DNA of 64,000 nt from Candidatus Levyibacteriota bacterium (GCA_016432345.1 CP066685.1:695740-759739); one strand, 5' to 3'; positions 9,700-64,000 are shown, numbered from the stretch's first letter. Made by a program: numbers and translations. Notes: generated by a model from the sequence alone, not told the origin.

Positions 9700-10281
9700 A
9701 TGGGCAAATTTTTTAGACTTGCAATTTTTTTGTGCTTAACACCCGTTGTTTTTTTATTACTCTTTGTTTCTATTTCTTACCTCTCATATCTTAAAGTTTT
9801 TCAAGATCCATACCACGTGCATCTTTCCCAAAGTCAAACTGTAGCTTACGCCGCTTTGCCATCTGCACAGGATATTATCGAACAAGAAGTAATCATGCAG
9901 GATGCCAGAGTAGAAATGATAAAACAATTCTTTGCCAAATATAAATCGCCGCTAGAACCGTACGCAAAAGAGGTTGTTAACTATGCCGATGATTTTGGTC
10001 TTGATTTTCGGCTTATTCCCTCTATCGCCATGCAAGAATCTAACCTTTGTCTTAAAGCTCCAGTTGACTCCAACAACTGCTGGGGATTTGGCATATATGG
10101 CGGCAAGGTAAGAATGTTTAAAGACTATAAAGAAGGGATTTATGAAGTTACCAAAACCCTTGCTACAAACTACAAGAAAAATGGCTTAGAAACGCCAGAA
10201 CAAATTATGACTCGCTACACCCCAGGAAGCAATGGCAGTTGGGCTAGAGGAGTAACCCACTTTATGAATCAGCTTCAGTAA
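9700..10281 (+). CDS. Secreted lysozyme-like / lytic-transglycosylase-like peptidoglycan hydrolase, paralog 1
   Basis: Signal anchor; conserved block IPSIAMQESNLC...WGFGIYGG (putative catalytic Glu-Ser context as in SLT-type muramidases); clear paralogy with the next gene. Confidence 0.5.
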   Translation: MGKFFRLAIFLCLTPVVFLLLFVSISYLSYLKVFQDPYHVHLSQSQTVAYAALPSAQDIIEQEVIMQDARVEMIKQFFAKYKSPLEPYAKEVVNYADDFGLDFRLIPSIAMQESNLCLKAPVDSNNCWGFGIYGGKVRMFKDYKEGIYEVTKTLATNYKKNGLETPEQIMTRYTPGSNGSWARGVTHFMNQLQ

Positions 10282-18295: not shown

Positions 18296-19978
18296 ATGAA
18301 AAGAAGCGATGCCTTAACTAAAGGAATTAAACGCGCGCCTGCCAGGGCAATGCTGCGGGCAGTTGGGTTTACAGATAAAGATTTTGGGAAACCAATTATA
18401 ACTGTGGCCTGTCCTTATACCAATGCCACCCCCTGCAATGCCCATATCCAGGATTTAGGCAACATAGCCCTGTCTGAAATAGAAAAAAAGGGTGGCAAAG
18501 GATTTATTTTTGGTACCCCTGTTGTCACAGATGGCGAAACAATGGGCATGGAAGGCATGAAGTATTCTCTTGTTAGCCGCGAACTTATTGCCGATTGCAT
18601 CGAAACCATGCACGAAGCGTATTCAGCCGATGCTGCTTTTACACTATCAGGATGCGACAAAACTATCCCAGCAGCTCTTATGCCACTGGCACGAAATAAC
18701 AATGTTGGACTAACACTTTATGGCGGAACAATTCGCCCAGGAAAATATAAAGGCAAAGATTTAACTATTGTTAGTACCTTTGAAGCAGTAGGAAGTTATA
18801 TTGCTGGAAAAATATCAGATGACGAACTTCATCAAATAGAGTGTCATTCTTGTCCAGGCAACGGCGCTTGCGGAGGCATGTATACGGCCAATACCATGGC
18901 TTCGGCGATTGAGGCTTTAGGAATGAGTATTCCGGGCAGCGCATCCCACCCGGCAGTTGATAAGCATAATAAAATTTCAGTAAAAAAAGTACAAGATATT
19001 AAAAAATCAATAACCGCACTCTTTATGCTTCTGGAAAAGAATATCCGAGCGCGGGATATTATAACTAAAAAGGCCTTTGAAAACGCTATCACAGTTGTTT
19101 TGGCATTGGGCGGTTCCACAAATGCAGTACTTCATCTTATTGCTCTTGCTCATGAAGCAGAAATAAATCTAACAATTGACGATTTTACTCGCATTGGCAA
19201 AAAAATTCCTTTAATTGGCAATTTTAAACCCTTTGGCGACTATGTAATGGAAGATTTAGATAATATTGGCGGCGTACCAATGGTAATGAAAATGCTCCTT
19301 GATGCAGGACATCTATATGGAGATTGCCTAACAGTCACTGGAAAAACCGTGTCCGAAAATCTTAAAAATGCCCCAAAACGGGAAACCAACCAAAACGTTA
19401 TTTATAGTCTCGAAAAACCATTATCTCCTCCACAACATCATATTATTATTTTAAGAGGCAACCTTGCGCCTGATGGCGCAGTGTTAAAACTAAGCGGAAA
19501 AGAAATGAAGTTTCATTCTGGTCCTGCCCGGGTTTTTAACTGCGAAGAAGAAGCTTTGGACGCAATTCTGCAGGGAAAAATAAAAAAAGGCGATTGTGTT
19601 GTAATTCGCTACGAGGGGCCAAAAGGCGGCCCGGGCATGCGGGAAATGCTTTCGCCATCCAGCGCTTTAATGGGCGCGGGACTTGGCAAAGATGTAGCTT
19701 TAATTACCGATGGACGTTTTTCTGGCGGCACACACGGCATCATGGTTGGCCACATTGCGCCAGAAGCAGAAAGAGGCGGACCAATTGCAACTATAAAAGA
19801 GGGTGATACAATAACAATTGATCTTGCAAAACGGACAGTTGATGTCGAACTTTCGAATGTCGAAATTAAAAAACGGCTGACAAAATGGAAAGCGCCAAAA
19901 GCGCAATACACCAGGGGCGTTTTGGCAAAGTACGCAAAATTAGTCTCAAGCGCAAGTAAAGGAGCGGTAACATCATGA
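18296..19978 (+). CDS. ilvD: Dihydroxy-acid dehydratase
   Basis: [17 protein letters not shown] Fe-S cluster motif; 560 aa. Confidence 0.9.
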
Positions 19979-37565: not shown

Positions 37566-37647
37566 TATCAGCGTATAGTTAATAGCGTCTAGCGTATAGT
37601 TTTAGATTTAACTAAACGCTAATTTCTAAACGCTATACGCTAAATAT
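37566..37647 (+). repeat. Imperfect palindromic repeat element of the AGCGTATAG / CTAAACGCT family filling the pheS-pheT spacer
   Basis: CAGCGTATAGTT, TAGCGTCTAGCGTATAGTT ... CTAAACGCTATACGCTA: inverted arms able to form a long hairpin; shares motifs with 48901-48977 and 49946-49976. Confidence 0.7.
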
Positions 37648-48889: not shown

Positions 48890-48900
48890 TAAAATAACAA

Positions 48901-48977
48901 TTAGCGTATAGATACTAGCATCTAGCGTTTAGTTAAAAAAACTATACGCTAATTTACTAGACGCTAAACGCTGTATT
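48901..48977 (+). repeat. Palindromic repeat element (TAGCGTATAG ... CTATACGCTA ... TAGACGCTAAACGCT) filling the rnc-rpsP spacer
   Basis: Same motif family and arm arrangement as 37566-37647; ends 1 nt before the rpsP ATG. Confidence 0.7.
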
Positions 48978-49208
48978 ATGAGTGTTGTTATTCGGCTAAC
49001 ACAAATGGGTAAAAAAGGCGAGCGAAAGTTTCGTGTTGTGGTAAAAGAAAAACGAAGCCGCAGGGACGGCAAACCAGTAGAATCTTTAGGCTGGTACGAA
49101 AAACGAACAGATAAGGTAATAAAAAATATAGATCGGGAGCGTTTTGAGTATTGGCTGCAAAAGGGAGCCAAACCAACCGCCACAGTTACCAAACTTTTGA
49201 CTGTATGA
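48978..49208 (+). CDS. rpsP: 30S ribosomal protein S16
   Basis: MSVVIRLTQMGKKGERKFRVVV canonical S16 N-terminus; 76 aa. Confidence 0.9.
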   Translation: MSVVIRLTQMGKKGERKFRVVVKEKRSRRDGKPVESLGWYEKRTDKVIKNIDRERFEYWLQKGAKPTATVTKLLTV

Positions 49209-49444
49209 AAAAGGCTTTACAATATATTGTTTCTTCAATTGTTGATAATCCAAAAGACGCAAAAATAGCAGAGCAGAAACAGGATGAAATGACACAACTT
49301 ATTATAACAGTAAATCCAGAAGATATGGGTAAGATAATAGGTAAAGAAGGTAAAGTTATCCGAAGCATCCGAAATGTCATGAAAATTTTAGCCATGAAAC
49401 ACAACGAAAAAATAAATATTTCATTAAGCGAAACCCCTCAATGA
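49205..49444 (+). CDS. KH-domain RNA-binding protein (YlqC/UPF0109 family)
   Basis: GKIIGKEGKVIRSIR GxxG KH loop; conserved position between rpsP and trmD; start overlaps the rpsP stop (ATGA). Confidence 0.75.
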   Translation: MKKALQYIVSSIVDNPKDAKIAEQKQDEMTQLIITVNPEDMGKIIGKEGKVIRSIRNVMKILAMKHNEKINISLSETPQ

Positions 49445-50166
49445 AAATCTCCATTCTAACGCTTTTCCCCGAAATGTTTGGGGGCGCTTTTGATCATTCA
49501 ATCATAAAAAAAGCGCAAGAAAAAAAAATTCTTAGTATTTCGTACGTTAACATCCGCGATTTTGGTATCGGCAAACACCGCATCGTTGATGACACACCCT
49601 ATGGCGGGGGAGCAGGCATGGTGATTAGAGTAGATGTGATTGCAAACGCTCTCGCACACGCCACACGCCACACGCCACACGCCACACGCCGAATTCTTCT
49701 TGATCCGCAGGGAGAAAAATTCACTCAAAAAAAAGCGCAAGAATTATCAAAATACGATCATCTGATCTTAATTTGCGGCCGCTACGAGGGAGTGGACGAA
49801 CGGGTGCGAAAATTTGTTGACGAGGAAATTTCGATCGGCGACTATGTCTTAACAGGCGGAGAAATTCCCGCCATGGTTATTACTGATGCTGTTTGTAGAT
49901 TGCTGCCAGATGTAATTAAAGAAGAATCGCCAAAAAACGAATCTTTTTCCAACCATACGCTAGACGCTAAACGCTATACGCTATTAGAGTACTCCCAATA
50001 CACCCGTCCGCCGATTTTTAATGGCAAAAAAGTTCCAATTATTCTTACCAAAGGAGATCATCAAAAAATAGCAGGGTGGAGAAATCAAGAAGCGCTAAAA
50101 AAAACAAAAAAGAAAAGGCCGGATTTATTGCAGCTTGAAAGCGGCAAGTTGATTCAAAAGCGATAA
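49441..50166 (+). CDS. trmD: tRNA (guanine37-N1)-methyltransferase TrmD carrying two in-frame repeat insertions
   Basis: SPOUT-fold TrmD motifs (ILTLFPEMF, DDTPYGGGAGMV, ICGRYEGVDERV, VLTGGE). Extra segments ATRHTPHATR (from the CGCCACA repeats) and HTLDAKRY (from the TAGACGCTAAACGCTATACG repeat) are present relative to canonical TrmD. Confidence 0.85.
   Translation: MKISILTLFPEMFGGAFDHSIIKKAQEKKILSISYVNIRDFGIGKHRIVDDTPYGGGAGMVIRVDVIANALAHATRHTPHATRRILLDPQGEKFTQKKAQELSKYDHLILICGRYEGVDERVRKFVDEEISIGDYVLTGGEIPAMVITDAVCRLLPDVIKEESPKNESFSNHTLDAKRYTLLEYSQYTRPPIFNGKKVPIILTKGDHQKIAGWRNQEALKKTKKKRPDLLQLESGKLIQKR
49645..49682 (+). repeat. Heptanucleotide tandem repeat (CGCCACA), about 5 units, inside the trmD coding sequence
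   Basis: GCACA-CGCCACA-CGCCACA-CGCCACA-CGCCACA-CGCCG read directly in the sequence. Confidence 0.9.
49946..49976 (+). repeat. Half-copy of the AGCGTATAG/TAGACGCTAAACGCT repeat element embedded in frame in trmD
   Basis: ATACGCTAGACGCTAAACGCTATACGCTATT matches the right arm of the elements at 37566-37647 and 48901-48977. Confidence 0.7.
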
Positions 50167-53268: not shown

Positions 53269-53826
53269 CTACCTTGGCGCGTTTCTCATGGTAACAGTTG
53301 TTTGGAAAGGAACTTTGGCCGCATTTTCTAAAAGCAAACCACTGCGGGTGGTAAGAGCAAAATTAATTCCAATAACAGGCGCGTCAGTCGCGCTAGCCTG
53401 CATACAGGTGAATGCGGGTAAATTACTTGGATCATCGCAAGCCAAAGTTACAGCAGAGTCTAAAAAAGAAATGCCATTTGTATAAATGGTAGGTGGAGAA
53501 GATGCGCATGAAAAAGCAAAAGTAGTATATGTCTTTTTATCATAAGCTGTTAATCGCACATAGTTATATGTTTCTGGCTCTGCTGGACAAACACTAATAA
53601 AATCTGTGCCATTGTTGCTTACACCATAAAAACCCTCGGCGTTGCGGATGGTTTTGGCCATTTGCGAAATGGCATAGTTGCCGTTTTGTCTAACCAGCGT
53701 GATAGCATTTGTCTTGTTGGCTCCCCTAAGCGAAGAAAACAAAATAGCGCCAATAATTGCTCCTACCGCAATCAAAACAACCATCACTACCAACAGCTCG
53801 ATTAAGGTAAAACCTTTATCTTTCAT
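53269..53826 (-). CDS. Type IV minor pilin (prepilin-type N-terminal methylation domain)
   Basis: MKDKGFTLIELLVVMVVL class III signal with the G/F cleavage site and Glu+5. Confidence 0.7.
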   Translation of the reverse strand: MKDKGFTLIELLVVMVVLIAVGAIIGAILFSSLRGANKTNAITLVRQNGNYAISQMAKTIRNAEGFYGVSNNGTDFISVCPAEPETYNYVRLTAYDKKTYTTFAFSCASSPPTIYTNGISFLDSAVTLACDDPSNLPAFTCMQASATDAPVIGINFALTTRSGLLLENAAKVPFQTTVTMRNAPR

Positions 53827-53831
53827 TTTTA

Positions 53832-54611
53832 TTACTCACCCCCACAACTACCACCTAAAACAACCTCTACAATATCAGATAAGCCGCTAGTTATACCCCC
53901 TCCATAATCGGTACTACCAGCAAATCTGTATATAATAGCATCACAGGTACTAGTTATATAGCTATAAGTATTAAAACTAGTTGTACCAGGAGCAAATCTA
54001 ACTAAGATACCTCCAGGCGTACATTGATAACCAGAACAGTAATAGATTATATATCCTGCCGCTCCATCCACAGAAGTCCAGGACAAATTAGGATTATTAG
54101 GATCATCATTATACGACAGCGCTGGGGGGACGCGGTTTGTCCCAGGAGTTGGGACAGCAGCCGAGGACAAACACGACACCTGCTTGGCGCTGTGGCAATA
54201 AAGATTGCCTGGGTTTGTACACTTGCTGTCCGACCACGATGTTGACACCGTAACTTCTGCCCCGCTTGAGCATGATGACGACAACTCTTTATTTATGGTT
54301 ACTTCCCGAACAAAAACATCAACATTTTGTCCACATCCAGTACCTTTTGGTGTAAGACTGCTCTTATCTTTATCCAAACAGTTATTGGGAGGAAATAAAT
54401 TAAACTGCGTAAAATTACTATCTCTTATTTTTCTTACTATCTCCATTCCTTGCTGAGAATATTGAGTGGCTAAATTTTGATTTTTGCTAAACTGGGCGTT
54501 GTAAAGAGCAGAAATTACCACAATTGTAATGGCCGAAACCAAAACCACAGCTATGCCAAAAGCCGCCAAAACCTCAATCAGCGTTTGCCCGTCCTCATTT
54601 TTCATTAGCAC
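53832..54611 (-). CDS. Type IV minor pilin / pseudopilin-like protein
   Basis: GQTLIEVLAAFGIAVVLV prepilin-like N-terminal helix (non-canonical Q instead of F at +1). Confidence 0.55.
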   Translation of the reverse strand: MLMKNEDGQTLIEVLAAFGIAVVLVSAITIVVISALYNAQFSKNQNLATQYSQQGMEIVRKIRDSNFTQFNLFPPNNCLDKDKSSLTPKGTGCGQNVDVFVREVTINKELSSSCSSGAEVTVSTSWSDSKCTNPGNLYCHSAKQVSCLSSAAVPTPGTNRVPPALSYNDDPNNPNLSWTSVDGAAGYIIYYCSGYQCTPGGILVRFAPGTTSFNTYSYITSTCDAIIYRFAGSTDYGGGITSGLSDIVEVVLGGSCGGE

Positions 54612-55111
54612 CCTCCTCCTATGCTTATGTTGCTTGCGCTATTAACCGATATTTTTTTACAATTGCCATACCCTGTTACTTTTATTTCGCCACCCGACCC
54701 CGAAATACCCCCTGAAATTGTGTTAAATTCAACAACCGCTATAGAAGTTTTATCAAAACTGATATTTGCCGGTAATTTTTTAGTATCCAAAGTATAAAAA
54801 CTACCACCACAGGAAACCCTAAACTCATAGTCTTTAAGATCGGGATCGGTAGCGCCGCGACATGATCCGTCGCAAATCTCCACTCTATATGCATTAAGCT
54901 GCTGCGTATCGCTGCACTGCGTTGGCTTTACCTGCGACTGCGCCCTAGATTTAGCCAACTGCAGCATGGTTGCCACCTCTGAAGTAGCAGCAGAAAGTGT
55001 TTGCGCTCTACTGTAATTTACAAATGCCGCAATGCCAACCACCGATAGGACTGCCGTAATAGCTATCACAATAATAAGCTCAATCAGCGTAAAACCTTTA
55101 TCATTTATCAT
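54605..55111 (-). CDS. Type IV minor pilin (FimT/GspH-like)
   Basis: MINDKGFTLIELIIVIAI prepilin signal; 168 aa. Confidence 0.65.
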   Translation of the reverse strand: MINDKGFTLIELIIVIAITAVLSVVGIAAFVNYSRAQTLSAATSEVATMLQLAKSRAQSQVKPTQCSDTQQLNAYRVEICDGSCRGATDPDLKDYEFRVSCGGSFYTLDTKKLPANISFDKTSIAVVEFNTISGGISGSGGEIKVTGYGNCKKISVNSASNISIGGGC

Positions 55112-55582
55112 TTACGGGTTTGTGAAGGTAATAGACCAATTTGTTGAACCATCACAGTATGTAGTATTATTATTTAGATCCTTATCGTTATCATTAACAT
55201 TCTCCAAACAAGCATACAAATTGTATCCCGTTCCACTTCCAGCTTGAACATAGGTATACACATATTTGCCAGTATTTAACGGATCGCAGGGAATTTTTTG
55301 TATGTAAGTTGCTGGCGGACTTCCCCCTACAAACGCATTATTACAAGCGGGCAATGAACTTGGATAACTGCCAAGGTCAGCTCGATAAATCTCTAAAGCT
55401 GCTTGAATTTGACGCAAGTTTGACTTTCTTTGTCCATCGCGAGCCCGCTGTCTAATCCCTATAAAATTTGCCATCAAAAGCGTTGTTAAAATACCAATAA
55501 TAACAATCACCACCAAAAGCTCAATTAAAGTAAATCCTTTTTTCATGGGCTCACGTTCGGGCTTGACACTGCATAGTTGCAA
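55112..55582 (-). CDS. Type IV pilin / GspG-like pseudopilin
   Basis: KKGFTLIELLVVIVIIGILTT...RARDGQRKSNLRQIQAALEIY, a classical T2SS/T4P major (pseudo)pilin N-domain. Confidence 0.75.
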   Translation of the reverse strand: MQLCSVKPEREPMKKGFTLIELLVVIVIIGILTTLLMANFIGIRQRARDGQRKSNLRQIQAALEIYRADLGSYPSSLPACNNAFVGGSPPATYIQKIPCDPLNTGKYVYTYVQAGSGTGYNLYACLENVNDNDKDLNNNTTYCDGSTNWSITFTNP

Positions 55583-56139
55583 ATTTTTCCGCAGGCAGAC
55601 GAATCTATATTGTTAAACTTTAAACTTGCTTGCGGATTTGCTCCTCCTCTTTCTAAACTAGCATACAACCAATAGGCTTGTCCATTGCTGCTGGCATAAT
55701 ATACGTACCTTCTAGTATCTGTGTCTTTAGGCAAAACAGCCATGTAGGGCGACCATTCCTCACCCCAATCTATAATTTGGTGATCTGCTTTAAATCCTTT
55801 TATTCTATAGGGAAGCTTGTCCTCTTTTGCTGTGCTTAGTGGATAACTACTATTATCTTTATGGTACTGCTCCAAAGCTTTTTGCATTTGTTCAAGGTCG
55901 GATTTTCTTATATTATCATTTGCTTTTTGCATTTGCGCCAGGGGATCAAAGTAAACAAATGCGCTTATCCCCAAAACACCAATCACAGCCATCGCCGCCA
56001 AAAGCTCAATTAGGGTAAAACCAGTCTGCAAGCGTATAGCAGGTAGCGTATAGCGTATAGTTTTTAATAAATTTTGCATTTTGAACTTTGAATTACTTTC
56101 CATCGTAGCAACGAAGAAAATATATGTCAAGGAAAACAA
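55543..56139 (-). CDS. Type IV pilin with a long leader; 5' end duplicated at 59809-59940
   Basis: ...LQTGFTLIELLAAMAVIG...KANDNIRKSDLEQMQKALEQY pilin N-domain. The first roughly 45 codons and 80 nt of upstream sequence are identical to those of the pilin gene at 58786-59940. Confidence 0.7.
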   Translation of the reverse strand: MFSLTYIFFVATMESNSKFKMQNLLKTIRYTLPAIRLQTGFTLIELLAAMAVIGVLGISAFVYFDPLAQMQKANDNIRKSDLEQMQKALEQYHKDNSSYPLSTAKEDKLPYRIKGFKADHQIIDWGEEWSPYMAVLPKDTDTRRYVYYASSNGQAYWLYASLERGGANPQASLKFNNIDSSACGKICNYAVSSPNVSP

Positions 56140-56141
56140 TC
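56000..56141 (-). repeat. About 140-bp segment (pilin 5' coding plus upstream leader with an AGCGTATAG x3 array), identical copy 1
   Basis: Identical by eye to 59809-59940, including AGCGTATAGCAGGTAGCGTATAGCGTATAG. Confidence 0.85.
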
Positions 56142-56161
56142 CTTAAAATAAAAGTTTACAA

Positions 56162-57289
56162 TTATGCAATAAAATTTAGGTAGTTTTTAGGCGTAACTGC
56201 CGCAAAAGCCGCTTGGGGATATGAAGTTATCCAATCCTTTGGCGCAACCACTTTTTTCTTGTTAGACCACTTGCATTCATACCCAAATAACTTACCGTCG
56301 CGGTCCTCCACCAAATCTATCTCCTGCTGACTATATGTGCGCCAAAAATACTGGTTGCTATAAATTCCTTTATATGAACGTTTTTTAAGCCTCTCAACCA
56401 CTACAAAATTCTCCCACAATTTTCCACCATCATCCCTCATATCAAGGCCGTTAAATTGCGCTATTATTCCATTACGTATCCCGTTGTCCAGAAAAAAATA
56501 TTTATTTTTACTAGTAATTTCAGAACGCAGATTTCTGCTTAATCCTCCTAATGATAGGATTACAAAAGATTTCTCCAACAAATCAAGATATCTGGCAACT
56601 GTTTTAATATCAATGCCAAGTTTCATTGATAACTCATTTAAAGATACTTCGCTGCCCAATTGAAATGCCAATAATTTTAACAAATCCAGTAATACTTTTG
56701 ATCCTTTGATTTTTTCTAATGACAGTACATCCTTTAACAAATAAGAATTAACTATTTCTTCAATAATACTTACTTTTTCTTGCTTGGTTTTAGCGGTTAA
56801 TACTTCTGGATAAACGCCAAAAATTAAAAATTCATTTAATCTTTCTCTAAGCTCGTGCTTATTATAAATCTCTGAAAGCTCAAGTTGAGAAATAGGAAAT
56901 AACGTAACAGTATTTTTTCTACCGGTTAAAGGTTCGCCAATCTGGTGGGAAAGGTCAAAAGACGATGATCCTGTGGCAATCACCTTAATATTTGGTATTT
57001 GATCTATAATAATCTTTAAACCCATGCCTATATTAGGAATTTGTTGCGCTTCATCAATTGCGATCAATTCATACCCTTGGGCATACTCCAAAATTTGGGA
57101 AAAATCCTGCGATCCTAAAATTTGTTGAGTACGGATATTATCTCCTATATCCAGCTTATATTTTAATTGAGTGCTGTTTAAATAATCCTGCAGCATAGTA
57201 GTTTTGCCTACACGTCTTGGCCCATAAATTACCAGCACTTTTTGTGGTTTTAACAGCTTTCCAATATCATATATTCTAGGTATAAGCAT
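56162..57289 (-). CDS. AAA+ superfamily ATPase (COG1373 / AAA_14 plus DUF4143-like)
   Basis: Walker A IYGPRRVGKTT, Walker B LIAIDEAQ; 375 aa; a paralog lies divergently downstream. Confidence 0.7.
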   Translation of the reverse strand: MLIPRIYDIGKLLKPQKVLVIYGPRRVGKTTMLQDYLNSTQLKYKLDIGDNIRTQQILGSQDFSQILEYAQGYELIAIDEAQQIPNIGMGLKIIIDQIPNIKVIATGSSSFDLSHQIGEPLTGRKNTVTLFPISQLELSEIYNKHELRERLNEFLIFGVYPEVLTAKTKQEKVSIIEEIVNSYLLKDVLSLEKIKGSKVLLDLLKLLAFQLGSEVSLNELSMKLGIDIKTVARYLDLLEKSFVILSLGGLSRNLRSEITSKNKYFFLDNGIRNGIIAQFNGLDMRDDGGKLWENFVVVERLKKRSYKGIYSNQYFWRTYSQQEIDLVEDRDGKLFGYECKWSNKKKVVAPKDWITSYPQAAFAAVTPKNYLNFIA

Positions 57290-57462
57290 AAAAATATGCT
57301 ATCACAACTCCACAAATTTGTCAAAATTTATGGAGTATTGATCCTTAAATTATTTTGTTAAACGTTATTTGGCAAGGTAGAAAGGGTACAACCTAGTCAA
57401 CCATTGACTTCCTTAAATAACCCTGCTAAAATTTAGATATTATTCAAAATAACCCTGCTAAA

Positions 57463-58746
57463 ATGAATTACTACCCAAGAAAACTGCTAAGTAAAATAGA
57501 ACCCTTTTATAAACTTAGGGAGATTATCGCCATAGTTGGCGCGAGACAAGTGGGTAAAACTACCCTTCTAAAAATTATTTTTGATCATTTATCAAAAAAA
57601 CATAAATGTTTATTTTTAACTTTTGAAAATCGTTCTGATTTAGAAATATTTGACACAGATATTGAAAACTTTAAAAAACTGTATTGTTTGGATTACGAAA
57701 TAATTTTTATAGATGAGTTTCAATATGCTAAAGATGCCGGGCAAAAACTAAAATATCTGTATGATACTACCAAAGTGAAGTTTTTTATTAGTGGTTCTGC
57801 TTCGCTGCAGATAAAAGAAGCAGGTAAATACCTGGTAGGCAGAGTGTTTACTTTTGATTTACATTCATTTTCTTTTGAGGAATACTTGGAAGTAACAAAT
57901 CCTGCTTTGTATCATATTGTCAAAAAAGGCTTTAACATAGTAAAAAATCTTTTAGCAGGAAACGAACCTAAAATCACAAATTTCATAAAAAGCGAAGCCC
58001 TAAATGCTAAATTAACAAATCTTTTCGAACAGTATTTGATATTTGGAGGTTATCCTAGAGTAGTAACTTCTAAAACAGACGACGAAAGAAAACAAGTTCT
58101 TGCCAGCATCATAGATAATTATTTATTGCGGGATATTAGTTCTTTACTGCATTTGGCAACGGAAAATCAGTTGTTAAATTTAAGCCGATTTTTAAGTCTG
58201 CAAACAGGTAATTTAATCTCTTACACAGAGTTATCTACAACTATCGGCATGCCTTACAAAGAAGTTAAAAACCACATCAAAATACTTGAGCAGACTTTTG
58301 TTGTTAATTTGGTTTATCCATATTTTGGCAATAGAAGAACAGAACTAGTTAAAAACCCTAAAGTATACTTTTTGGACAACGGTTTTAGAAATAAAGTGAT
58401 TGACAATTTTTCTTCTTTGTCAGACAGGTCGGATATGGGGGCATTAGCAGAAAATTTTATATTCAATAGTCTAATTAGAGGCAACATAATAGATTCAAAC
58501 AAGGTAAATTTTTGGAGAACAAAATCACAGGCCGAGGTTGATTTTATAGTTTTTAGAGAAGGGGAAATTATCCCTGTGGAAGTAAAATACGCTCCCATCA
58601 ATCAAAAAGTTGCGGGGAAAAGTCTGTTTAGTTTTATCAATAAATACTCTCCCAAAACAGCAGTTATTACTACCAACAAAGAATTTGGGGCGCGTCAAAT
58701 TAAAAACACAAATCTATACTTTATTCCTATTTTCTTTTTAGACTAG
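57463..58746 (+). CDS. AAA+ superfamily ATPase (COG1373 / AAA_14 plus DUF4143-like), paralog
   Basis: Walker A IVGARQVGKTT, Walker B IIFIDEFQ; 427 aa. Confidence 0.7.
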   Translation: MNYYPRKLLSKIEPFYKLREIIAIVGARQVGKTTLLKIIFDHLSKKHKCLFLTFENRSDLEIFDTDIENFKKLYCLDYEIIFIDEFQYAKDAGQKLKYLYDTTKVKFFISGSASLQIKEAGKYLVGRVFTFDLHSFSFEEYLEVTNPALYHIVKKGFNIVKNLLAGNEPKITNFIKSEALNAKLTNLFEQYLIFGGYPRVVTSKTDDERKQVLASIIDNYLLRDISSLLHLATENQLLNLSRFLSLQTGNLISYTELSTTIGMPYKEVKNHIKILEQTFVVNLVYPYFGNRRTELVKNPKVYFLDNGFRNKVIDNFSSLSDRSDMGALAENFIFNSLIRGNIIDSNKVNFWRTKSQAEVDFIVFREGEIIPVEVKYAPINQKVAGKSLFSFINKYSPKTAVITTNKEFGARQIKNTNLYFIPIFFLD

Positions 58747-58785
58747 GCCGGCCCTACAGGGAGGGGTATCCTTCTTTTTTCATAA

Positions 58786-59940
58786 TTATTGCTCAAAACA
58801 ATATAATCTCTTTGATTCGTTACAATAAACACCACCACAAGAGCTTGTCCAAGAATTATCTGTTGCCAGATAGCCACCTGTTACAGCACTGTATAAAAAA
58901 GATGTCGTTGACCAATCACTACATGGATTACCATCGCTGCTGCCACTTGAATTAGTTTGCGTCCATACTGTACAACTGGCAGATGAAGTCAAAACATCCC
59001 CGTTTTCTGTTACGTTAATTCCATGCCTCAAATAGGAAGAGTCTGATTTCTGTGTAATCAAATCACTCCAGCTATTTGCAACTAACGTATCATCAATAAG
59101 ATTGTATGATGATGTTTTAGTAAACCTTGTACCAGGGCCGTTTGTACTATCTGAAAGCCATGTCATCCATGTCCTCCCATGCAAATTAGTAACAGTGGAA
59201 TTATCTGCTAAACTTTTGCAAATCTTATCTGCTCCATCCAAACCGCTAGTACCACTACCAGCACTTTTTAAATCACCATTATACACTTGGCTGGTCACAA
59301 AAACATACTTACTTGTGAGAGTTGGTGTAGCTGTGGGAACGGGAGTAGAAGTTGCGGTTGGTTCTGGCGTTGAAGTTGGAGCAGGAGTAGAAGTTGGAGA
59401 TGCAACTTGACCTTGACAAAGCGTGGCTGGACATGGAGCAACCGTTAAATTGGAGGATGTAGCGCTGTAATTGTATGGATCGCTGCATGGAATAACTTGT
59501 GGGCCAACTTGCGAGTCGTTTACGCAGTGATCAAGTTTGGCAAAAAGACGATAGCCGCCAGCATCAAGCCCATATTTATAAGGCATATTAGAATCCTGCG
59601 GCACTTTTTCCATATATCCTGGCCATAAATCTCCAAATGGCACGGTGTCAGGATAAGTACCGTTATCATTGTAATACACTTCAAGCGCCCTTTGAATTTG
59701 CGCCAGCTCCTGTTTCCTTTGAGTATCTCTGGCCCTTTGTATCTGATCTATTGGATTAACAACCACTAAAATCCCTGCCGTTAAAATTCCAAGAATGGCA
59801 ATCACCACCAAAAGCTCAATTAGGGTAAAACCAGTCTGCAAGCGTATAGCAGGTAGCGTATAGCGTATAGTTTTTAATAAATTTTGCATTTTGAACTTTG
59901 AATTACTTTCCATCGTAGCAACGAAGAAAATATATGTCAA
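58786..59940 (-). CDS. Long type IV pilin: pilin N-domain, Thr/Pro-rich linker, roughly 190-aa C-terminal extension domain
   Basis: GFTLIELLVVIAILGIL...RARDTQRKQELAQIQRALEVYY; linker PTSTPAPTSTPEPTATSTPVPTATPT; the N-terminal leader is identical to the gene at 55543-56139. Confidence 0.7.
   Translation of the reverse strand: MTYIFFVATMESNSKFKMQNLLKTIRYTLPAIRLQTGFTLIELLVVIAILGILTAGILVVVNPIDQIQRARDTQRKQELAQIQRALEVYYNDNGTYPDTVPFGDLWPGYMEKVPQDSNMPYKYGLDAGGYRLFAKLDHCVNDSQVGPQVIPCSDPYNYSATSSNLTVAPCPATLCQGQVASPTSTPAPTSTPEPTATSTPVPTATPTLTSKYVFVTSQVYNGDLKSAGSGTSGLDGADKICKSLADNSTVTNLHGRTWMTWLSDSTNGPGTRFTKTSSYNLIDDTLVANSWSDLITQKSDSSYLRHGINVTENGDVLTSSASCTVWTQTNSSGSSDGNPCSDWSTTSFLYSAVTGGYLATDNSWTSSCGGVYCNESKRLYCFEQ
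59809..59940 (-). repeat. About 140-bp segment (pilin 5' coding plus upstream leader), identical copy 2
   Basis: See 56000-56141. Confidence 0.85.
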
Positions 59941-59958
59941 GAAACCCCAGGTGGTAAA

Positions 59959-60531
59959 TTATTTTAGTGGTTTAGATGTTGGTGTAACTGTGGGAGTGGG
60001 GGTTGAAGTTGCGGTTGGTTCTGGCGTTGAGGTTGGAGCAGGAGTAGAAGTTGGGACCACAACTGGACAAAGCGCTGTATCCGCGCATGGAGCAACCGTT
60101 AAATTGGGGGAGGTAACGCTGTAGTTGTAAGTGGTTGTACTACATGTTGCAGAGTCAATAACTTGATTGTCATCGCACCGCTCGAGTTTGGCAAAAAGAC
60201 GATAAGAACTCCCATCTGTAGCAGGCTGATACGAATACTCAAAAGAACCACCTGGATCTTTTGGCATCTTCATAAGATACGGTGAAAACGGTTCGCCCCA
60301 TACGACTTCGGAGGATGAAGGATATTTGCCGTTATCTGCATAGTAGGATTCCAGGGCATTGCGTACCTGCAAAAGTTCCTGTTTTCTCTGCGAATCCCGA
60401 GCCTTTTTAAGTAAATCTACCGGATTTATAATCGTCAGCAGTCCGGCAGCAAGAATCCCCAAAATAGCAATCACTACTAAAAGCTCAATCAGAGTAAAAG
60501 CCCGCTCGGCAAATAACAATCGCTTTTTCAT
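59959..60531 (-). CDS. Type IV pilin with a Thr/Pro-rich C-terminal tail; mosaic relative of the N-terminal half of the 58786-59940 pilin
   Basis: AFTLIELLVVIAILGILAAG...KARDSQRKQELLQVRNALESYY; shares NLTVAPC and the TSTPAPTSTPEPTATSTP segment (nearly identical DNA) with the preceding pilin. Confidence 0.7.
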   Translation of the reverse strand: MKKRLLFAERAFTLIELLVVIAILGILAAGLLTIINPVDLLKKARDSQRKQELLQVRNALESYYADNGKYPSSSEVVWGEPFSPYLMKMPKDPGGSFEYSYQPATDGSSYRLFAKLERCDDNQVIDSATCSTTTYNYSVTSPNLTVAPCADTALCPVVVPTSTPAPTSTPEPTATSTPTPTVTPTSKPLK

Positions 60532-60573: not shown

Positions 60574-63500
60574 CTACGGAGCAACCTCCTGCCAAATATA
60601 GTTGGGGGATTTAAGAAAATCAGGAGCATTTAAAATAAAGTCTAATCGCTCGAAAACTTTAAACGATGGCGTGGTTTTGTTATTACTGCAAAGGTTTCTG
60701 TGATTTATTATCTGTCCTCCTTGCAATTTAGCATTAGTTACCAAAGCGCCGGCAATACTAAGCTGGGTATCTGGTGTTGGAGGGCTGGCTTGACAGCCGG
60801 CAATATCGTTTCCCTCCAATACAATGTCTGAATCACTGCTGTAAAATCCTTCCAATTTGGTAACTGCTTTATCAACTGTAATTTTCCCAGATACCGAAAA
60901 GGTAACAGTCGAACCAACCGGTACAATAATATTCTCGCTGATATTAAGGTTGCCATTTACCAGTATGACATAATTTTTACCATTCGGGAAAGTATATCCG
61001 GTACCAGACAATGTTAAATCGCCTTCTGATTTATACAAACCATTTGTTAATTGACTAATATCCGATGGAAAAGGATTTGGGACAATCCCGTTTTGCCTGG
61101 CGGTGGTGGTCATATAATCGTAGGAGGTTCTAATTGCTCCGCTCACAGGCGTAAATGTTTCTTTCCACAATCCCGAACCAGCTTGCCAATCGTAGTCTTT
61201 CGATGCCCGGCCGCCTGCTACCCCAAAATTTGGGGTGGATCCGCCGGAAAAGATTACTCCAGGTGTTTGGCCGCCGCCGCCATCACCTCTGCCAGGCAAA
61301 GACGCGTATGGCTCCATACCCGTTCTACCCTGGGGAATTGAGTCCACAAACCCGCTATCCATGCGCATATCCCCGCCCACTCCCTGAAACCAGGACGAAG
61401 TACGAACATTTACAGTAACTCTAATAGATTGTGGAATACAATTACGTTGGGCTATCAGCGGATCGCTAGATACCCCTGCATCCTCATTTACTGTTAGCGT
61501 AGCTGTTCCCTCACTAATAGCATTAACTGTAATAATTGCTCCTTGAGGAACTCCCCTAGAAATTCCAATTATTTGACTCTCGGGATCACTAGTATACCAG
61601 CCTATTAAACCTGGATTTCCATTATAGCCAGTGGCGGTTAAGGTGAGCGTTTGTCCAGGCTCCATGGTTATATTTAATCCCGGTGATACCCGCAGGATGC
61701 TGCACCAATACGAAACATCGGTACTGCAGTAGTTGCTAAAAAGACCATTGCTGTTTTTGGCATAGGATTTTGGGTGAAACTGACCCGCAGAATCATATCT
61801 GTGCGTAGCGGTCGAGCCGCCTGGAGTAAGAAAAAGCGAGGTTATAGGATCATCGAAATTGTAGAAATAACTGCTGATTGCCTGCGGCGGGGCGGGGCTG
61901 GTATCAATGCTGGCCGAGTATTGACTTGTTATTATGTTTGAATATCCACTCAAAAACAAAGGTCTAACAAAGGCAAAAAGGTAGCTTCCGGCCGGGGTAA
62001 TTAGATAATCCCGTTCTCCGCCTATCATATGGCTTACGCCCGGTATCCTTTTTAAAGGCAGCCACGGGCCTAAAGTGCCGTCGCTGCTATTAACAGCCGA
62101 AACAAAATCAACGCTAGTCTGTAAGCCGTTTTCTGTAAAACGCAGTCCTGTTACAAAAGCGTAGCCGTTAGACGCAAAAGCATTTGAAAAGTGACCATTT
62201 GGCGGGGCCGTAAGCCGCGCCCAGGAATCTAACGACCCGCCCCCAGATCTTATCCGCGCTCCAAAAACATTTGTTGTTGTCCCATTGAAATCAATTAAAT
62301 AAAGATAATCGTTGGCTACAAACAGATCCTTTATTCCATAAGGAGAGTCCACCTGGGGCATAGGTAATTCTTCCCAGTTAAGACTGTCTGTTGAGCGCAA
62401 AATTTTTGCTGTTACCGCGCCTGCTTCGCTTCTTGTTCCCGAAACAATTAATTTATTACCATAACTAGTCATCGAATAAGGCGTAAACCCCGCAGGGAAA
62501 TTTGGGTCACGGGAAAGCCAAGAACCAAGACTGCCATCGCTACTATTAACTTGAACATTGTAAAACTTATACACATTAGCGCCATAATGATTGTAATTGG
62601 CAATTACATAGATATTATTGCCTCTGTTTGCAACAAGCTGACCAGGATTTAAAGTATAAGAAGGATCAGCGCTGGTGCCGGGATTAGGCAGCGACCATTC
62701 CGGTTTGCTAACCCACGGGCCTAAAGTGCCGTCTGTTTGATATTGCGCTCTAAGCACATTAGCAAGAGAAGCTGTGCCATAAGCCCCCCCAACCATAAAA
62801 AGATAATTATTCACCATTACAGGTTTTGAGTACCAAATAGGAGGATAAGACTGATAAGTGTTTTCAAAAGACTGCAGTGTGCCGTTGGCGTTGATTTTGG
62901 CGGCAAGACTGGCATTAAGCGAGGTTGTTACAACAACAATATACCCGTTTGCTAAAACCGCAGATTGCGGCCATGCGCCAATAAAAGTTGGCGTTTCGGA
63001 CATCTGCCATCCTTCTTCTCTAAGAGTGCCATTATTTTGGTTTATAGGAGCAAATTGCGTAAATCCACCGCTGGTAACATACAAATAATTACCCGATACC
63101 GCAGAATTACTCATTACACCAGGATAAGATAAATCAGTAAGGGTCTGCCATGCGTTTATAGTACCATCGCTATTTACATAAGCTGATTTTACTGTTTTTA
63201 TCCATCCGCTATTATCATTGCCCCCTGCTATAAAAATGTAATCGTTGGCGGCCGCGGCTGAATGATAATACAATGGGATTGAAAGTTTTGTAGTTTCTGT
63301 CCAATCGCCTAAAGAAACGCTGTCTCCGTTGATAGTTATTTTGGCGGAGTAAGTTGTATCTTTGGAGAAACTTCCATACAAACCTCCTGTTACAAACAAA
63401 TATCCTTTAATTGCGACAGTAGCATGAGTATATCGAGGCTGCGGCAGGGACGTAAGGGTTGTCCACTGGTCTAAAGTGCCGTCATCGTTAACCTTGGCGG

Positions 63501-64000
63501 CATAGACGGCGGATTGCGTTGTACCATCGTTTGCCATACCACCGACTACAAAAAGAAAACCATTATACACAGTGGCAGTATGATTATGAAGCTGTTTGGG
63601 CAAAGAAGAAACAGTGCTCCACTGGCCTAAAGTGCCGTCATCGTTAACCTTGGCGGCATAGACGGCGGAAGAATAATATCCTCCTGTAATATAAACATAA
63701 CCATTAACCGCGGCTGTGGCGTATCCAACCATCTCTTGTGATGTAAGAGGAACTGCCATAGGATTCCACTTCGCAACAACATTGCTGGGATTAGCGGCAA
63801 TGGTGTTAAAGACAACGTCAAGCGGCCGCTCGCCCCTATCTGGCTGCGCAGTTAGGCTTTGACAAAAAGGCCTATCCGCCTCGCCCGCAAAACCAAAAGA
63901 AACACTTTGGCTATAAACAGAACAACTTCTATCTTCACAGTTATAAAGGCCGGAGTTAACATTGGAAAATTCCGGCGCGCCGCCTGGTCCAATCGTGTCG
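60574..64000 (-). CDS. Giant secreted beta-propeller (Kelch/galactose-oxidase-like repeat) protein, likely pilus-associated adhesin; N-terminus lies beyond the window edge
   Basis: Repeated roughly 45-aa units (YITGGYYSSAVYAAKVNDDGTLGQWSTVSSLP / FVVGGMANDGTTQSAVYAAKVNDDGTLDQWTTLTSLP ...). The minus-strand reading frame stays open from 63759 up to coordinate 64000 with no stop. Confidence 0.6.
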   Translation of the reverse strand, partial: DTIGPGGAPEFSNVNSGLYNCEDRSCSVYSQSVSFGFAGEADRPFCQSLTAQPDRGERPLDVVFNTIAANPSNVVAKWNPMAVPLTSQEMVGYATAAVNGYVYITGGYYSSAVYAAKVNDDGTLGQWSTVSSLPKQLHNHTATVYNGFLFVVGGMANDGTTQSAVYAAKVNDDGTLDQWTTLTSLPQPRYTHATVAIKGYLFVTGGLYGSFSKDTTYSAKITINGDSVSLGDWTETTKLSIPLYYHSAAAANDYIFIAGGNDNSGWIKTVKSAYVNSDGTINAWQTLTDLSYPGVMSNSAVSGNYLYVTSGGFTQFAPINQNNGTLREEGWQMSETPTFIGAWPQSAVLANGYIVVVTTSLNASLAAKINANGTLQSFENTYQSYPPIWYSKPVMVNNYLFMVGGAYGTASLANVLRAQYQTDGTLGPWVSKPEWSLPNPGTSADPSYTLNPGQLVANRGNNIYVIANYNHYGANVYKFYNVQVNSSDGSLGSWLSRDPNFPAGFTPYSMTSYGNKLIVSGTRSEAGAVTAKILRSTDSLNWEELPMPQVDSPYGIKDLFVANDYLYLIDFNGTTTNVFGARIRSGGGSLDSWARLTAPPNGHFSNAFASNGYAFVTGLRFTENGLQTSVDFVSAVNSSDGTLGPWLPLKRIPGVSHMIGGERDYLITPAGSYLFAFVRPLFLSGYSNIITSQYSASIDTSPAPPQAISSYFYNFDDPITSLFLTPGGSTATHRYDSAGQFHPKSYAKNSNGLFSNYCSTDVSYWCSILRVSPGLNITMEPGQTLTLTATGYNGNPGLIGWYTSDPESQIIGISRGVPQGAIITVNAISEGTATLTVNEDAGVSSDPLIAQRNCIPQSIRVTVNVRTSSWFQGVGGDMRMDSGFVDSIPQGRTGMEPYASLPGRGDGGGGQTPGVIFSGGSTPNFGVAGGRASKDYDWQAGSGLWKETFTPVSGAIRTSYDYMTTTARQNGIVPNPFPSDISQLTNGLYKSEGDLTLSGTGYTFPNGKNYVILVNGNLNISENIIVPVGSTVTFSVSGKITVDKAVTKLEGFYSSDSDIVLEGNDIAGCQASPPTPDTQLSIAGALVTNAKLQGGQIINHRNLCSNNKTTPSFKVFERLDFILNAPDFLKSPNYIWQEVAP

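Follow-up and report, generated by a model that had tools for sequence, protein, structure and literature searches.

We analyzed a 64-kb window (the whole stretch of DNA under study, in whose positions all coordinates are given) from the 762-kb genome of a groundwater Levybacteria member of the Candidate Phyla Radiation (CPR). The window carries a type IV pilus gene cluster at 51.3-63.8 kb on the minus strand, in which three pilin genes, here named pilA', pilB' and pilC', form a mosaic family. In the order of transcription, the cluster consists of a Kelch/PKD protein gene, pilC', pilB', two ATPase genes, pilA', four N_methyl pilin genes, a gene for a 290-aa protein and a PilM-like gene, and the genes downstream of the latter are also within the window (Table 1). 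The prepilin peptidase, T2SSE and T2SSF genes were found in the relatives L130 and L133, and in this genome they are expected past base 64000.

The products of pilA', pilB' and pilC' all scored above the cut-off of PF07963 and were also matched by TIGR02532. Motif search detected G/FTLIELL or A/FTLIELL (the slash separates leader and mature part), in which the last leader residue is G or A and the mature part opens with F-T-L-I-E, including Glu5, as in type IV pilins. pilA' is the first gene of the downstream pilin operon and belongs to a large family conserved across Levybacteria/Microgenomates, whose 480 homologues are typically 45-60% identical. The starts of pilA' and pilB' had been listed at 56139 and 59940, respectively; the ATG codons at 56079 and 59889 are more likely.

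The heads of pilA' and pilB' were exactly identical over 134 bp (module copies A and B, offset 3810), or over 138 bp with one indel. The approximately 140 bp of 100% identity that the initial annotation had reported for these genes is thus real, while its division into 80 nt of upstream sequence and 45 codons does not add up to that length. Counted from the two ATG codons, the block comprises 52 nt of promoter and 5' untranslated region (5'UTR), followed by 28 codons for a 20-aa leader and eight mature residues (FTLIELLx). The coding strand reads TTGACA, 17 nt, TGcTACGAT, a short untranslated stretch and ATG CAA AAT, encoding MQNLLKTIRYTLPAIRLQTG/FTLIELL, and the identity ends at the eighth mature codon. 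A 30-nt core of the block was found nowhere else in the window (chance expectation 0 copies), and a third copy of the 134-bp block was detected neither in the window nor in any locus retrieved. The two promoter-like sites of the block were the joint top matches of the promoter scan. Because both copies carry the same predicted site, the co-regulation from duplicated promoters proposed earlier is a fair inference.

The upstream edge of the block is sharp and falls on the -35 box. Its downstream edge is within the FTLIELL-coding stretch, the sole DNA segment common to all six pilin genes (family D1), with 66-87% identity among them. In the codon-window analysis, the proportion of synonymous differences (pS) between pilA' and pilB' was 0.00 in codons 1-28 and 0.5-1.1 immediately after. 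Past the block the two genes do not diverge completely, as had been stated, but stay paralogues at 39-48% amino acid identity. Such a sharp-edged tract of identity including synonymous sites, with both copies kept, has the features of generic gene conversion between paralogues. The transcribed part of the module is made of two 7-nt arrays detected by Tandem Repeats Finder (TRF). A riboswitch or thermometer reading of the module was dropped because the RNA structure of its transcript was not significant (z = -0.65).

The pilB' product is built from a pilin module (~59413-59829), a disordered Thr/Pro linker (~59311-59412) and an endostatin-like (DUF1554-type) module (58789-59310). Its AlphaFold2 model had an overall predicted local distance difference test (pLDDT) score of 79.5, with values below 50 in the linker and about 90 in residues 194-367. 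The model showed a long N-terminal helix and a Foldseek match to C. difficile PilA1, while the C-terminal domain matched endostatin (1koe, E 4e-8, target template modelling (TM) score 0.78; range 0.72-0.78). As modelled, pilB' is a modular pilin in the defined sense of a pilin module, a linker and an independently folding extra module. Pfam search gave no direct DUF1554 match in pilB' itself, which is too diverged for the model. Its homologues carry PF07588 (DUF1554) and PF06482 (endostatin), one of them (P0007) above the PF07588 cut-off, and the DUF1554-type assignment of the pilB' module is predicted from these homologues and the modelled fold. Among the homologues, the pilB'-type pilin module was joined to DUF1554, CBM_4_9 or Laminin_G_3 modules, and DUF1554 in turn was attached to dockerin or to pilins of other types. 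The N- and C-module similarities were discordant across the homologues; the domain shuffling suggested in the initial annotation was thus seen, and it takes place at the Thr/Pro linkers. Three partial relatives were obtained when metagenome contigs were searched with pilB'. Raynaud et al. (2021, PMC8179133) described the modular design as widespread and counted over 1,200 such pilins with 264 architectures, several of them from CPR phyla. As in Streptococcus sanguinis PilB/PilC from that work, a binding module is grafted in the modelled pilB' onto an N-terminal pilin module by way of a flexible linker. It differs from the modular pilins of that study in its endostatin/DUF1554-type fold, which the main text of the paper does not name, and in its linker, a long Thr/Pro tract, with a linker-only paralogue, pilC', adjoining.

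pilC' is paralogous to the pilin module and linker of pilB' and lacks the endostatin-like (DUF1554) module. It aligns to pilB' residues 10-190 and ends six codons past the Thr/Pro linker, in agreement with the earlier remark that the shorter gene resembles the longer one in its N-terminal half. Identity between the two was 56-60% over the whole pilin module, with a distinctly more similar 3' part (block 2). Block 2 had been described as a near-identical second shared module; the block exists, but near-identity is overstated, since the DNA was 83% identical over 162 nt gapped and, in sub-blocks of 91 and 44 nt, 87% and 91%, respectively, with a 57-nt core containing 3 mismatches (counted by hand on the alignment) and a longest exact run of 26 nt. 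Over the last ~55 codons DNA identity ranged from 83 to 95% and pS from 0.14 to 0.4, compared with a pS of 0.6-1.0 across the remaining pilin domain. The low-pS part includes the non-repetitive YNYS.TS.NLTVAPC, so the similarity is more than low complexity. Block 2 is clearly older than block 1 and reflects either later homogenization or slower divergence of the 3' part.

Between module copies A and B lie the two ATPase genes, which are in divergent orientation and whose spacer (57290-57462) contains promoter-like sites for both. GC content was 30-35% in the ATPase segment and 39-44% in both flanks. Both ATPases matched the hidden Markov models of PADLOC PDC-S01 from end to end. Unlike a plain PDC-S01 candidate system, two divergent copies sit here within a pilin operon, and a defence role is only a predicted, candidate one. 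We compared three syntenic relatives, L130 (groundwater, 79-kb), L134 (GCA_041643055.1) and L135. In all three, the gene for a large protein is followed by those for a modular pilin, a pilA-family pilin and a T2SSG-type pilin, and in L130 and L134 the series continues to PilM/N/O. In each of them the modular pilin and pilA genes adjoin, with a 13-nt gap or overlapping ends, and neither a pilC'-like gene nor the ATPases were present. Because the relatives lack the pair, and because it has low GC content, its own promoter-like sites and the PDC-S01 match, the ATPase pair is a lineage-specific insertion that was probably horizontally acquired. It stands between the promoter region of the modular pilin on one side and pilA' with all the genes that follow it on the other. 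The initial annotation had mentioned neither these foreign-looking ATPases between the repeats nor their lack in three relatives, nor the wider spread of the AGCGTATAG heptamers described below.

Leaders homologous to that of the module (...AATTCAAAATTCAAA ATG CAA AAT ... AAA ACT ATA CGC T...) were found in the relatives L133 and L129 on two different pilin families. In L133 the gene that bears it, P0166, is of the pilA family (48% identity to pilA'), and the leader aligns as TIRY.L.AI..Q.G/FTLIELL. In L129 it stands on the orthologue (52% identity) of the window pilin 53269-53826, which itself has the short leader MKDKG. The occurrence of the MQN...KTIR leader on different pilin families in relatives shows that 5' ends have moved among paralogues before. 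No canonical in-frame start was present in L129 between the leader ATG and the cleavage site, which argues that the leader is translated there. The leaders of L129 and L133 differ from the window leader by many substitutions and indels and are recognizable only at the DNA level. At the protein level, word-index search with the 44-aa leader returned no homologue, and exhaustive phmmer search with the 35-aa leader returned only itself. The annotated leaders of pilA' homologues (P0121-P0240; Microgenomates) ranged from 3 to more than 50 residues, with MKKG at the short end, and many long ones resemble translated short tandem repeats (FSTFNFQLST, KFKIQNSKFKI). Gene callers may extend starts through in-frame repeat arrays, and these lengths and repeat-like translations call for caution with start-codon calls in the pilA family.

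Table 1. Features of the pilin cluster and of the heptamer arrays in the window.
Feature	Position	Strand	Basis and remarks
Module copy A, head of pilA'	55998-56131	minus	Exact identity with copy B; crossed by contig L003 into unique sequence at either end
Module copy B, head of pilB'	59808-59941	minus	Exact identity with copy A; covered by contigs L001 and L002
Sigma-70-like promoter, copy A (twin)	56102-56130	minus	10/12 matches; consensus match only
Sigma-70-like promoter, copy B	59912-59940	minus	TTGACA-17-TACGAT, TG before second hexamer; 10/12 matches; consensus match only
pilA', GspG/PilA-like pilin, 178 aa from ATG (MQNLL)	55543-56079	minus	Pfam N_methyl and T2SSG; 480 homologues; synteny with L130, L134, L135
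pilB', modular pilin, 367 aa from ATG	58786-59889	minus	Pfam N_methyl; listed as 58786-59940
pilC', 190-aa pilin	59959-60531	minus	Pfam; short own leader MKKRLLFAERA/FTLIELL
Block 2, 3' block of pilB' in common with pilC'	59318-59480 (pilB') vs 59974-60129 (pilC')	minus	YNYS..NLTVAPC.. and Thr/Pro linker
ATPase 1, AAA_14 and DUF4143	56162-57289	minus	Pfam; PADLOC PDC-S01 E 1.8e-142, residues 8-374
ATPase 2, AAA_14 and DUF4143	57463-58746	plus	Pfam; PADLOC PDC-S01 E 3.4e-89, residues 4-407
Kelch-repeat/PKD protein, 1061 aa	60574-63759	minus	Directly upstream of pilins; domain search
Four further N_methyl pilins	55112-55546, 54605-55111, 53832-54611, 53269-53826	minus	Domain search
Heptamer array (AGCGTATAG triplet), copy B	59841-59870	minus	Units CTATACG, CTATACG, CTACCTG, CTATACG, then CT; leader-coding part; TRF period 7, 4.3 copies
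Twin heptamer array, copy A	56031-56060	minus	Inside exact repeat
Second 7-nt array (CAAAATT-type), copy B	59880-59904	minus	Spans 5'UTR and ATG; TRF period 7, 3.6 copies
Twin CAAAATT-type array, copy A	56070-56094	minus	
Array inverted pair just upstream of pheT	37566-37647		Hairpin significant, z = -4.4
Array inverted pair just upstream of rpsP	48898-48978		
Solo array inside trmD (gene 49441-50166)	49955-49984		Encodes ..YTLDAKRYTLLEY..

Taken together, the mosaic family is most likely a product of paralogue evolution and not a switching device. We consider it fairly probable that ordinary non-reciprocal recombination between paralogues (gene conversion) copied the promoter-leader module across an operon-splitting ATPase insertion. 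Of the mechanisms considered, non-reciprocal recombination best explains the block-wise identity among diverged paralogues, with a pS of 0 in block 1 and a reduced one in block 2; here the initial annotation was correct. The insertion would have cut pilA', the downstream pilin genes and the PilMNO genes off from the upstream promoter. Gene conversion or an ectopic copy would then have put the same promoter and leader before both genes, with the downstream crossover in the FTLIELL-coding stretch and the upstream end at the promoter edge. As a result, the adhesin pilin and the operon of the filament-core pilin pilA' would be transcribed and processed alike, and expression would be restored or ensured behind the partly opposed ATPases. 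pilC' would be an older partial tandem duplicate (pilin module and linker) of a pilB'-like gene, and its 3' ~160 bp would later have been homogenized with pilB'.

Several points weigh against this account. At its upstream junction the copied tract shows no clear homology apart from TTTC, for which a simple two-ended homologous conversion does not fully account. The sequence of insertion first and promoter copy afterwards is deduced from synteny, which fixes neither the order in time nor the donor copy. The block promoter is predicted from the sequence as a consensus match only, and the start codon has three candidates: the ATG of MQN..., an in-frame TTG directly after the array, and ATA. Module copies were counted within 64 kb of a 762-kb genome, and more copies elsewhere are possible. 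Finally, all contigs used to support the locus are short-read de Bruijn consensus sequences, which would not show minority rearrangements.

The source is a metagenome-assembled genome and 134-bp repeats are longer than the usual k-mer sizes, which would fit an assembly artefact, either the doubling of a single true copy or the merging of two strains. Logan contigs from six sequencing runs, found by exact-protein look-up and compared with the window by BLAST, were all 100% identical to the window. Contig L002 runs from the 3' end of pilC' through the block and pilB' to ATPase 2, and L003 from pilB' through both ATPases and the block to pilA' and two further pilins; both cross the whole repeat into unique sequence on either side. 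L003 was the sole contig across the pilA' copy, also when contigs were sought via the 144-aa pilin (55112-55546). Two further contigs, L004 and L005, begin 25-30 nt into copy B and break off exactly 30 nt into copy A, which is how a k=31 graph behaves where a repeat is truly present twice. Since the contigs reproduce all four junctions, both block contexts exist in the reads of several samples. Assembly duplication, named at the outset as a possible refutation, is thereby extremely improbable, both copies being backed in their unique flanks. We also judged it improbable that both genes acquired, by separate insertions upstream of them, a small mobile or self-propagating promoter-carrying repeat of heptamer arrays. 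The two 7-nt arrays indeed make up about half of the block, CGCTAnn arrays are scattered through the window and many phyla, and the upstream edge is sharp. Nevertheless, the reading frame of the block continues across the class III signal peptide to the FTLIELL codons, so the block is the 5' end of a pilin gene rather than an autonomous element; neither terminal inverted repeats nor a target duplication were noted at its edges in the flank sequences and repeat scan; and no third copy was found in the window or the retrieved loci, nor the exact 24-mer in viral contigs. A reading in which purifying selection has preserved a common cis-regulatory and leader sequence since the original duplication, with no recent recombination, would fit the functional nature of promoter, 5'UTR and signal peptide and the partial conservation of related leaders in L129 and L133. 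It is very unlikely in view of the 0 differences per 134 nt, including the synonymous sites of 28 codons, next to codons with a pS of 0.5-1.1: zero synonymous change beside saturated sites is more than purifying selection alone can explain. Moreover, the homologous leaders of the relatives carry many substitutions and indels, and no significant RNA structure was present that selection would conserve (z = -0.65). A Campbell-type event, in which a circle with the module, pilB' and the ATPases would have integrated, was rejected, as pilB' has host-like GC content, the modular pilin occupies the same place in the relatives and only the ATPases are low in GC.

Pilin loci are classic sites of variation, and the initial annotation had read this one as ongoing cassette-type antigenic or adhesive variation. 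In such a programmed system, recombination between the 134-bp direct repeats or shared blocks would switch the expressed body, either by deletion or excision of the 3.8-kb pilB'-ATPase segment or by a swap of adhesin cassettes. Direct repeats of 134 bp flanking 3.7 kb could indeed recombine, and in relatives the leader cassette occurs on different pilin families. Even so, we regard such a system as decidedly unlikely, since silent, promoterless or 5'-truncated cassettes were not found; all three genes are complete, each with start codon, class III signal peptide and promoter-like site (that of pilC', TTGACA-17-TACCTT, was read by eye from the alignment). The identity lies in the constant 5' end (promoter, leader, alpha-1N) instead of the variable region. 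The repeats are direct, not inverted, with only weak, unrelated inverted pairs found. Among the open reading frames (ORFs) at 52-64 kb, which encode pilins, ATPases and the Kelch/PKD protein, there was no recombinase or invertase, and no G-quadruplex (G4) motif was detected at 52-64 kb on either strand. All six independent contigs, one arrangement in six runs, agree with the window at 100% identity, although consensus contigs would not show minority variants; no alternative arrangement was seen.

The same features separate the locus from two known systems. In Neisseria pilE/pilS, a single expression locus receives segments of the variable region from silent copies that are promoterless and 5'-truncated, and a G4 aids this transfer. 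The likeness lies in non-reciprocal block transfer between pilin paralogues giving mosaic genes; the genes here are complete and promoter-bearing, the shared block is promoter and leader rather than variable region, and a nearby initiating G4 is lacking. The Moraxella tfpQ/tfpI inversion by Piv needs inverted repeats and an adjacent recombinase, as do shufflon-type switches. With the present locus, as interpreted here, it shares a recombination in the conserved 5' pilin coding region, where in Moraxella one promoter and leader can serve alternative bodies. The window differs in having direct repeats, a promoter of its own for each copy and no recombinase nearby.

The AGCGTATAG triplet, placed by the initial annotation in the shared region, is indeed inside the exact repeat; it lies, however, in the leader-coding part, and it belongs to a wider class of oriented CGCTAnn heptamer arrays across phyla that is not specific to pilins, as the arrays at pheT, rpsP and trmD show. 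CTATACGCT occurred 12 times in the window against 0.22 expected. The array sequence inside trmD (CTATACGCTAGACGCTAAACG) was also present in trmD of L130 (~18423-18443), with TrmD aligning along its whole length, and this nucleotide conservation hints that the DNA or RNA itself is under selection. Array elements in L130 were also located between the T2SSE, PilT and T2SSF genes. For the CAAAATT-type stretch, a homologous one was found in L129 and L133. In a survey of species-representative genomes with the pattern CTAWACGCT-N12-CTAWACGCT, at least 120 loci (L007-L126) were obtained, and 117 short arrays were analyzed among the matches listed, to which the following results refer. Their hosts included Patescibacteria, Omnitrophota, Atribacterota, Elusimicrobia, Planctomycetota, Clostridia and others. 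The arrays usually had four units, (CTAnnCG)4CT, and the two units not fixed by the search pattern followed CTA[AT][AC]CG, with an agreement of 82-93% at C, G, C and T. An ATG-initiated ORF of at least 80 aa followed within 60 nt in 40 forward versus 11 reverse cases, and within 21 nt in 25 versus 0, the forward arm lying 0-40 nt before the start codon. An inverted partner array, which forms a hairpin with the first, was present upstream in 21-23 cases and downstream in 0. The genes downstream were unrelated housekeeping genes. At gathering thresholds, tRNAs were all that Rfam recognized in the window, and the arrays of 18 array-bearing loci gave no match. Our literature search found no description of CGCTA-type arrays, and full-text search with the array sequence matched unrelated primers only. 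Inspected by eye as promoters, the arrays have in TATACG a -10 element of poor quality, and their 7-nt phasing puts the -35 at a wrong distance.

The nearest known counterpart is the TAACTGA heptamer of Beggiatoaceae, Cyanobacteria and Bacteroidetes, whose function is unknown (MacGregor 2015, PMC4679880). TAACTGA arrays consist of 2-6 tandem units in forward orientation, a few nt from start codons and often without Shine-Dalgarno sequence; the genes downstream have no common function and include ribosomal proteins, some arrays are inside ORFs, and their spread is patchy (PMC4679880). The CGCTAnn arrays resemble this class in being oriented and start-proximal, with mixed downstream genes and one array inside an ORF (trmD). 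They differ from TAACTGA repeats in their unit (CGCTA plus two variable nt), in the frequent inverted upstream partner that forms a hairpin, and in their hosts, namely Patescibacteria, Omnitrophota, Atribacterota, Elusimicrobia, Planctomycetota and Clostridia. In the more distant relative L127 (~9880-9990), five CTATACC heptamers stand upstream of a TTGACA promoter-like site before a pilin gene, so heptamer arrays of another unit sequence also accompany pilin 5' regions. The pilC' product scored 28.1 bits for ComP_DUS, the DNA-uptake-sequence receptor pilin, against a Pfam gathering cut-off of 27.3 bits, with pilB' and several homologues slightly below; this probably reflects generic pilin similarity. 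A DNA-uptake-sequence reading of the arrays, prompted by this score, was dropped, the motif occurring in unrelated phyla and being tied to start codons. One more far-reaching idea is that the block is a portable "expression and export cassette" of promoter, array leader and class III signal peptide, repeatedly re-attached to pilin paralogues at the FTLIELL codons, with the CGCTAnn core as an undescribed cross-phylum cis-element read by a conserved nucleic-acid-binding factor that controls translation or mRNA fate. We hold this to be rather doubtful; if true, cassette swaps would move pilin genes in and out of array-based control. The heptamer arrays are a more interesting lead than the pilin mosaic and might repay separate study.

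Two neighbouring genes deserve mention. The Kelch/PKD protein gene contains internal DNA repeats (63421-63513 vs 63577-63669, 80% identical). The L130 protein at the same position has 911 aa and a weak N_methyl match, and on this ground the Kelch/PKD protein may be a giant pilus-associated or pilin-like protein. The pilin-like protein encoded at 53832-54611 (259 aa, GTG start) extends, as judged by eye without alignment, ~90 residues beyond the end of its L129 orthologue (...CLSGVVP, then stop). This length difference from the L129 gene (1-99) may be another gain or loss of a C-terminal module in the cluster.

In conclusion, the locus is a further case of modular pilins and of gene conversion among pilin paralogues, both already known. 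Within 5 kb it combines three ordinary routes, namely module grafting, partial tandem duplication with homogenization, and copying of a promoter and signal peptide, among which there is no new mechanism. The grafted pilB' module is predicted from its fold to be lectin-like (endostatin-fold) and is joined via the Thr/Pro linker, while copying of promoter and leader is proposed to keep the pilin operon expressed after a foreign candidate-defence pair landed in it. Since CPR bacteria are thought to rely on type IV pili for host attachment and DNA uptake, the make-up and expression of their pilin repertoires matter for CPR biology.

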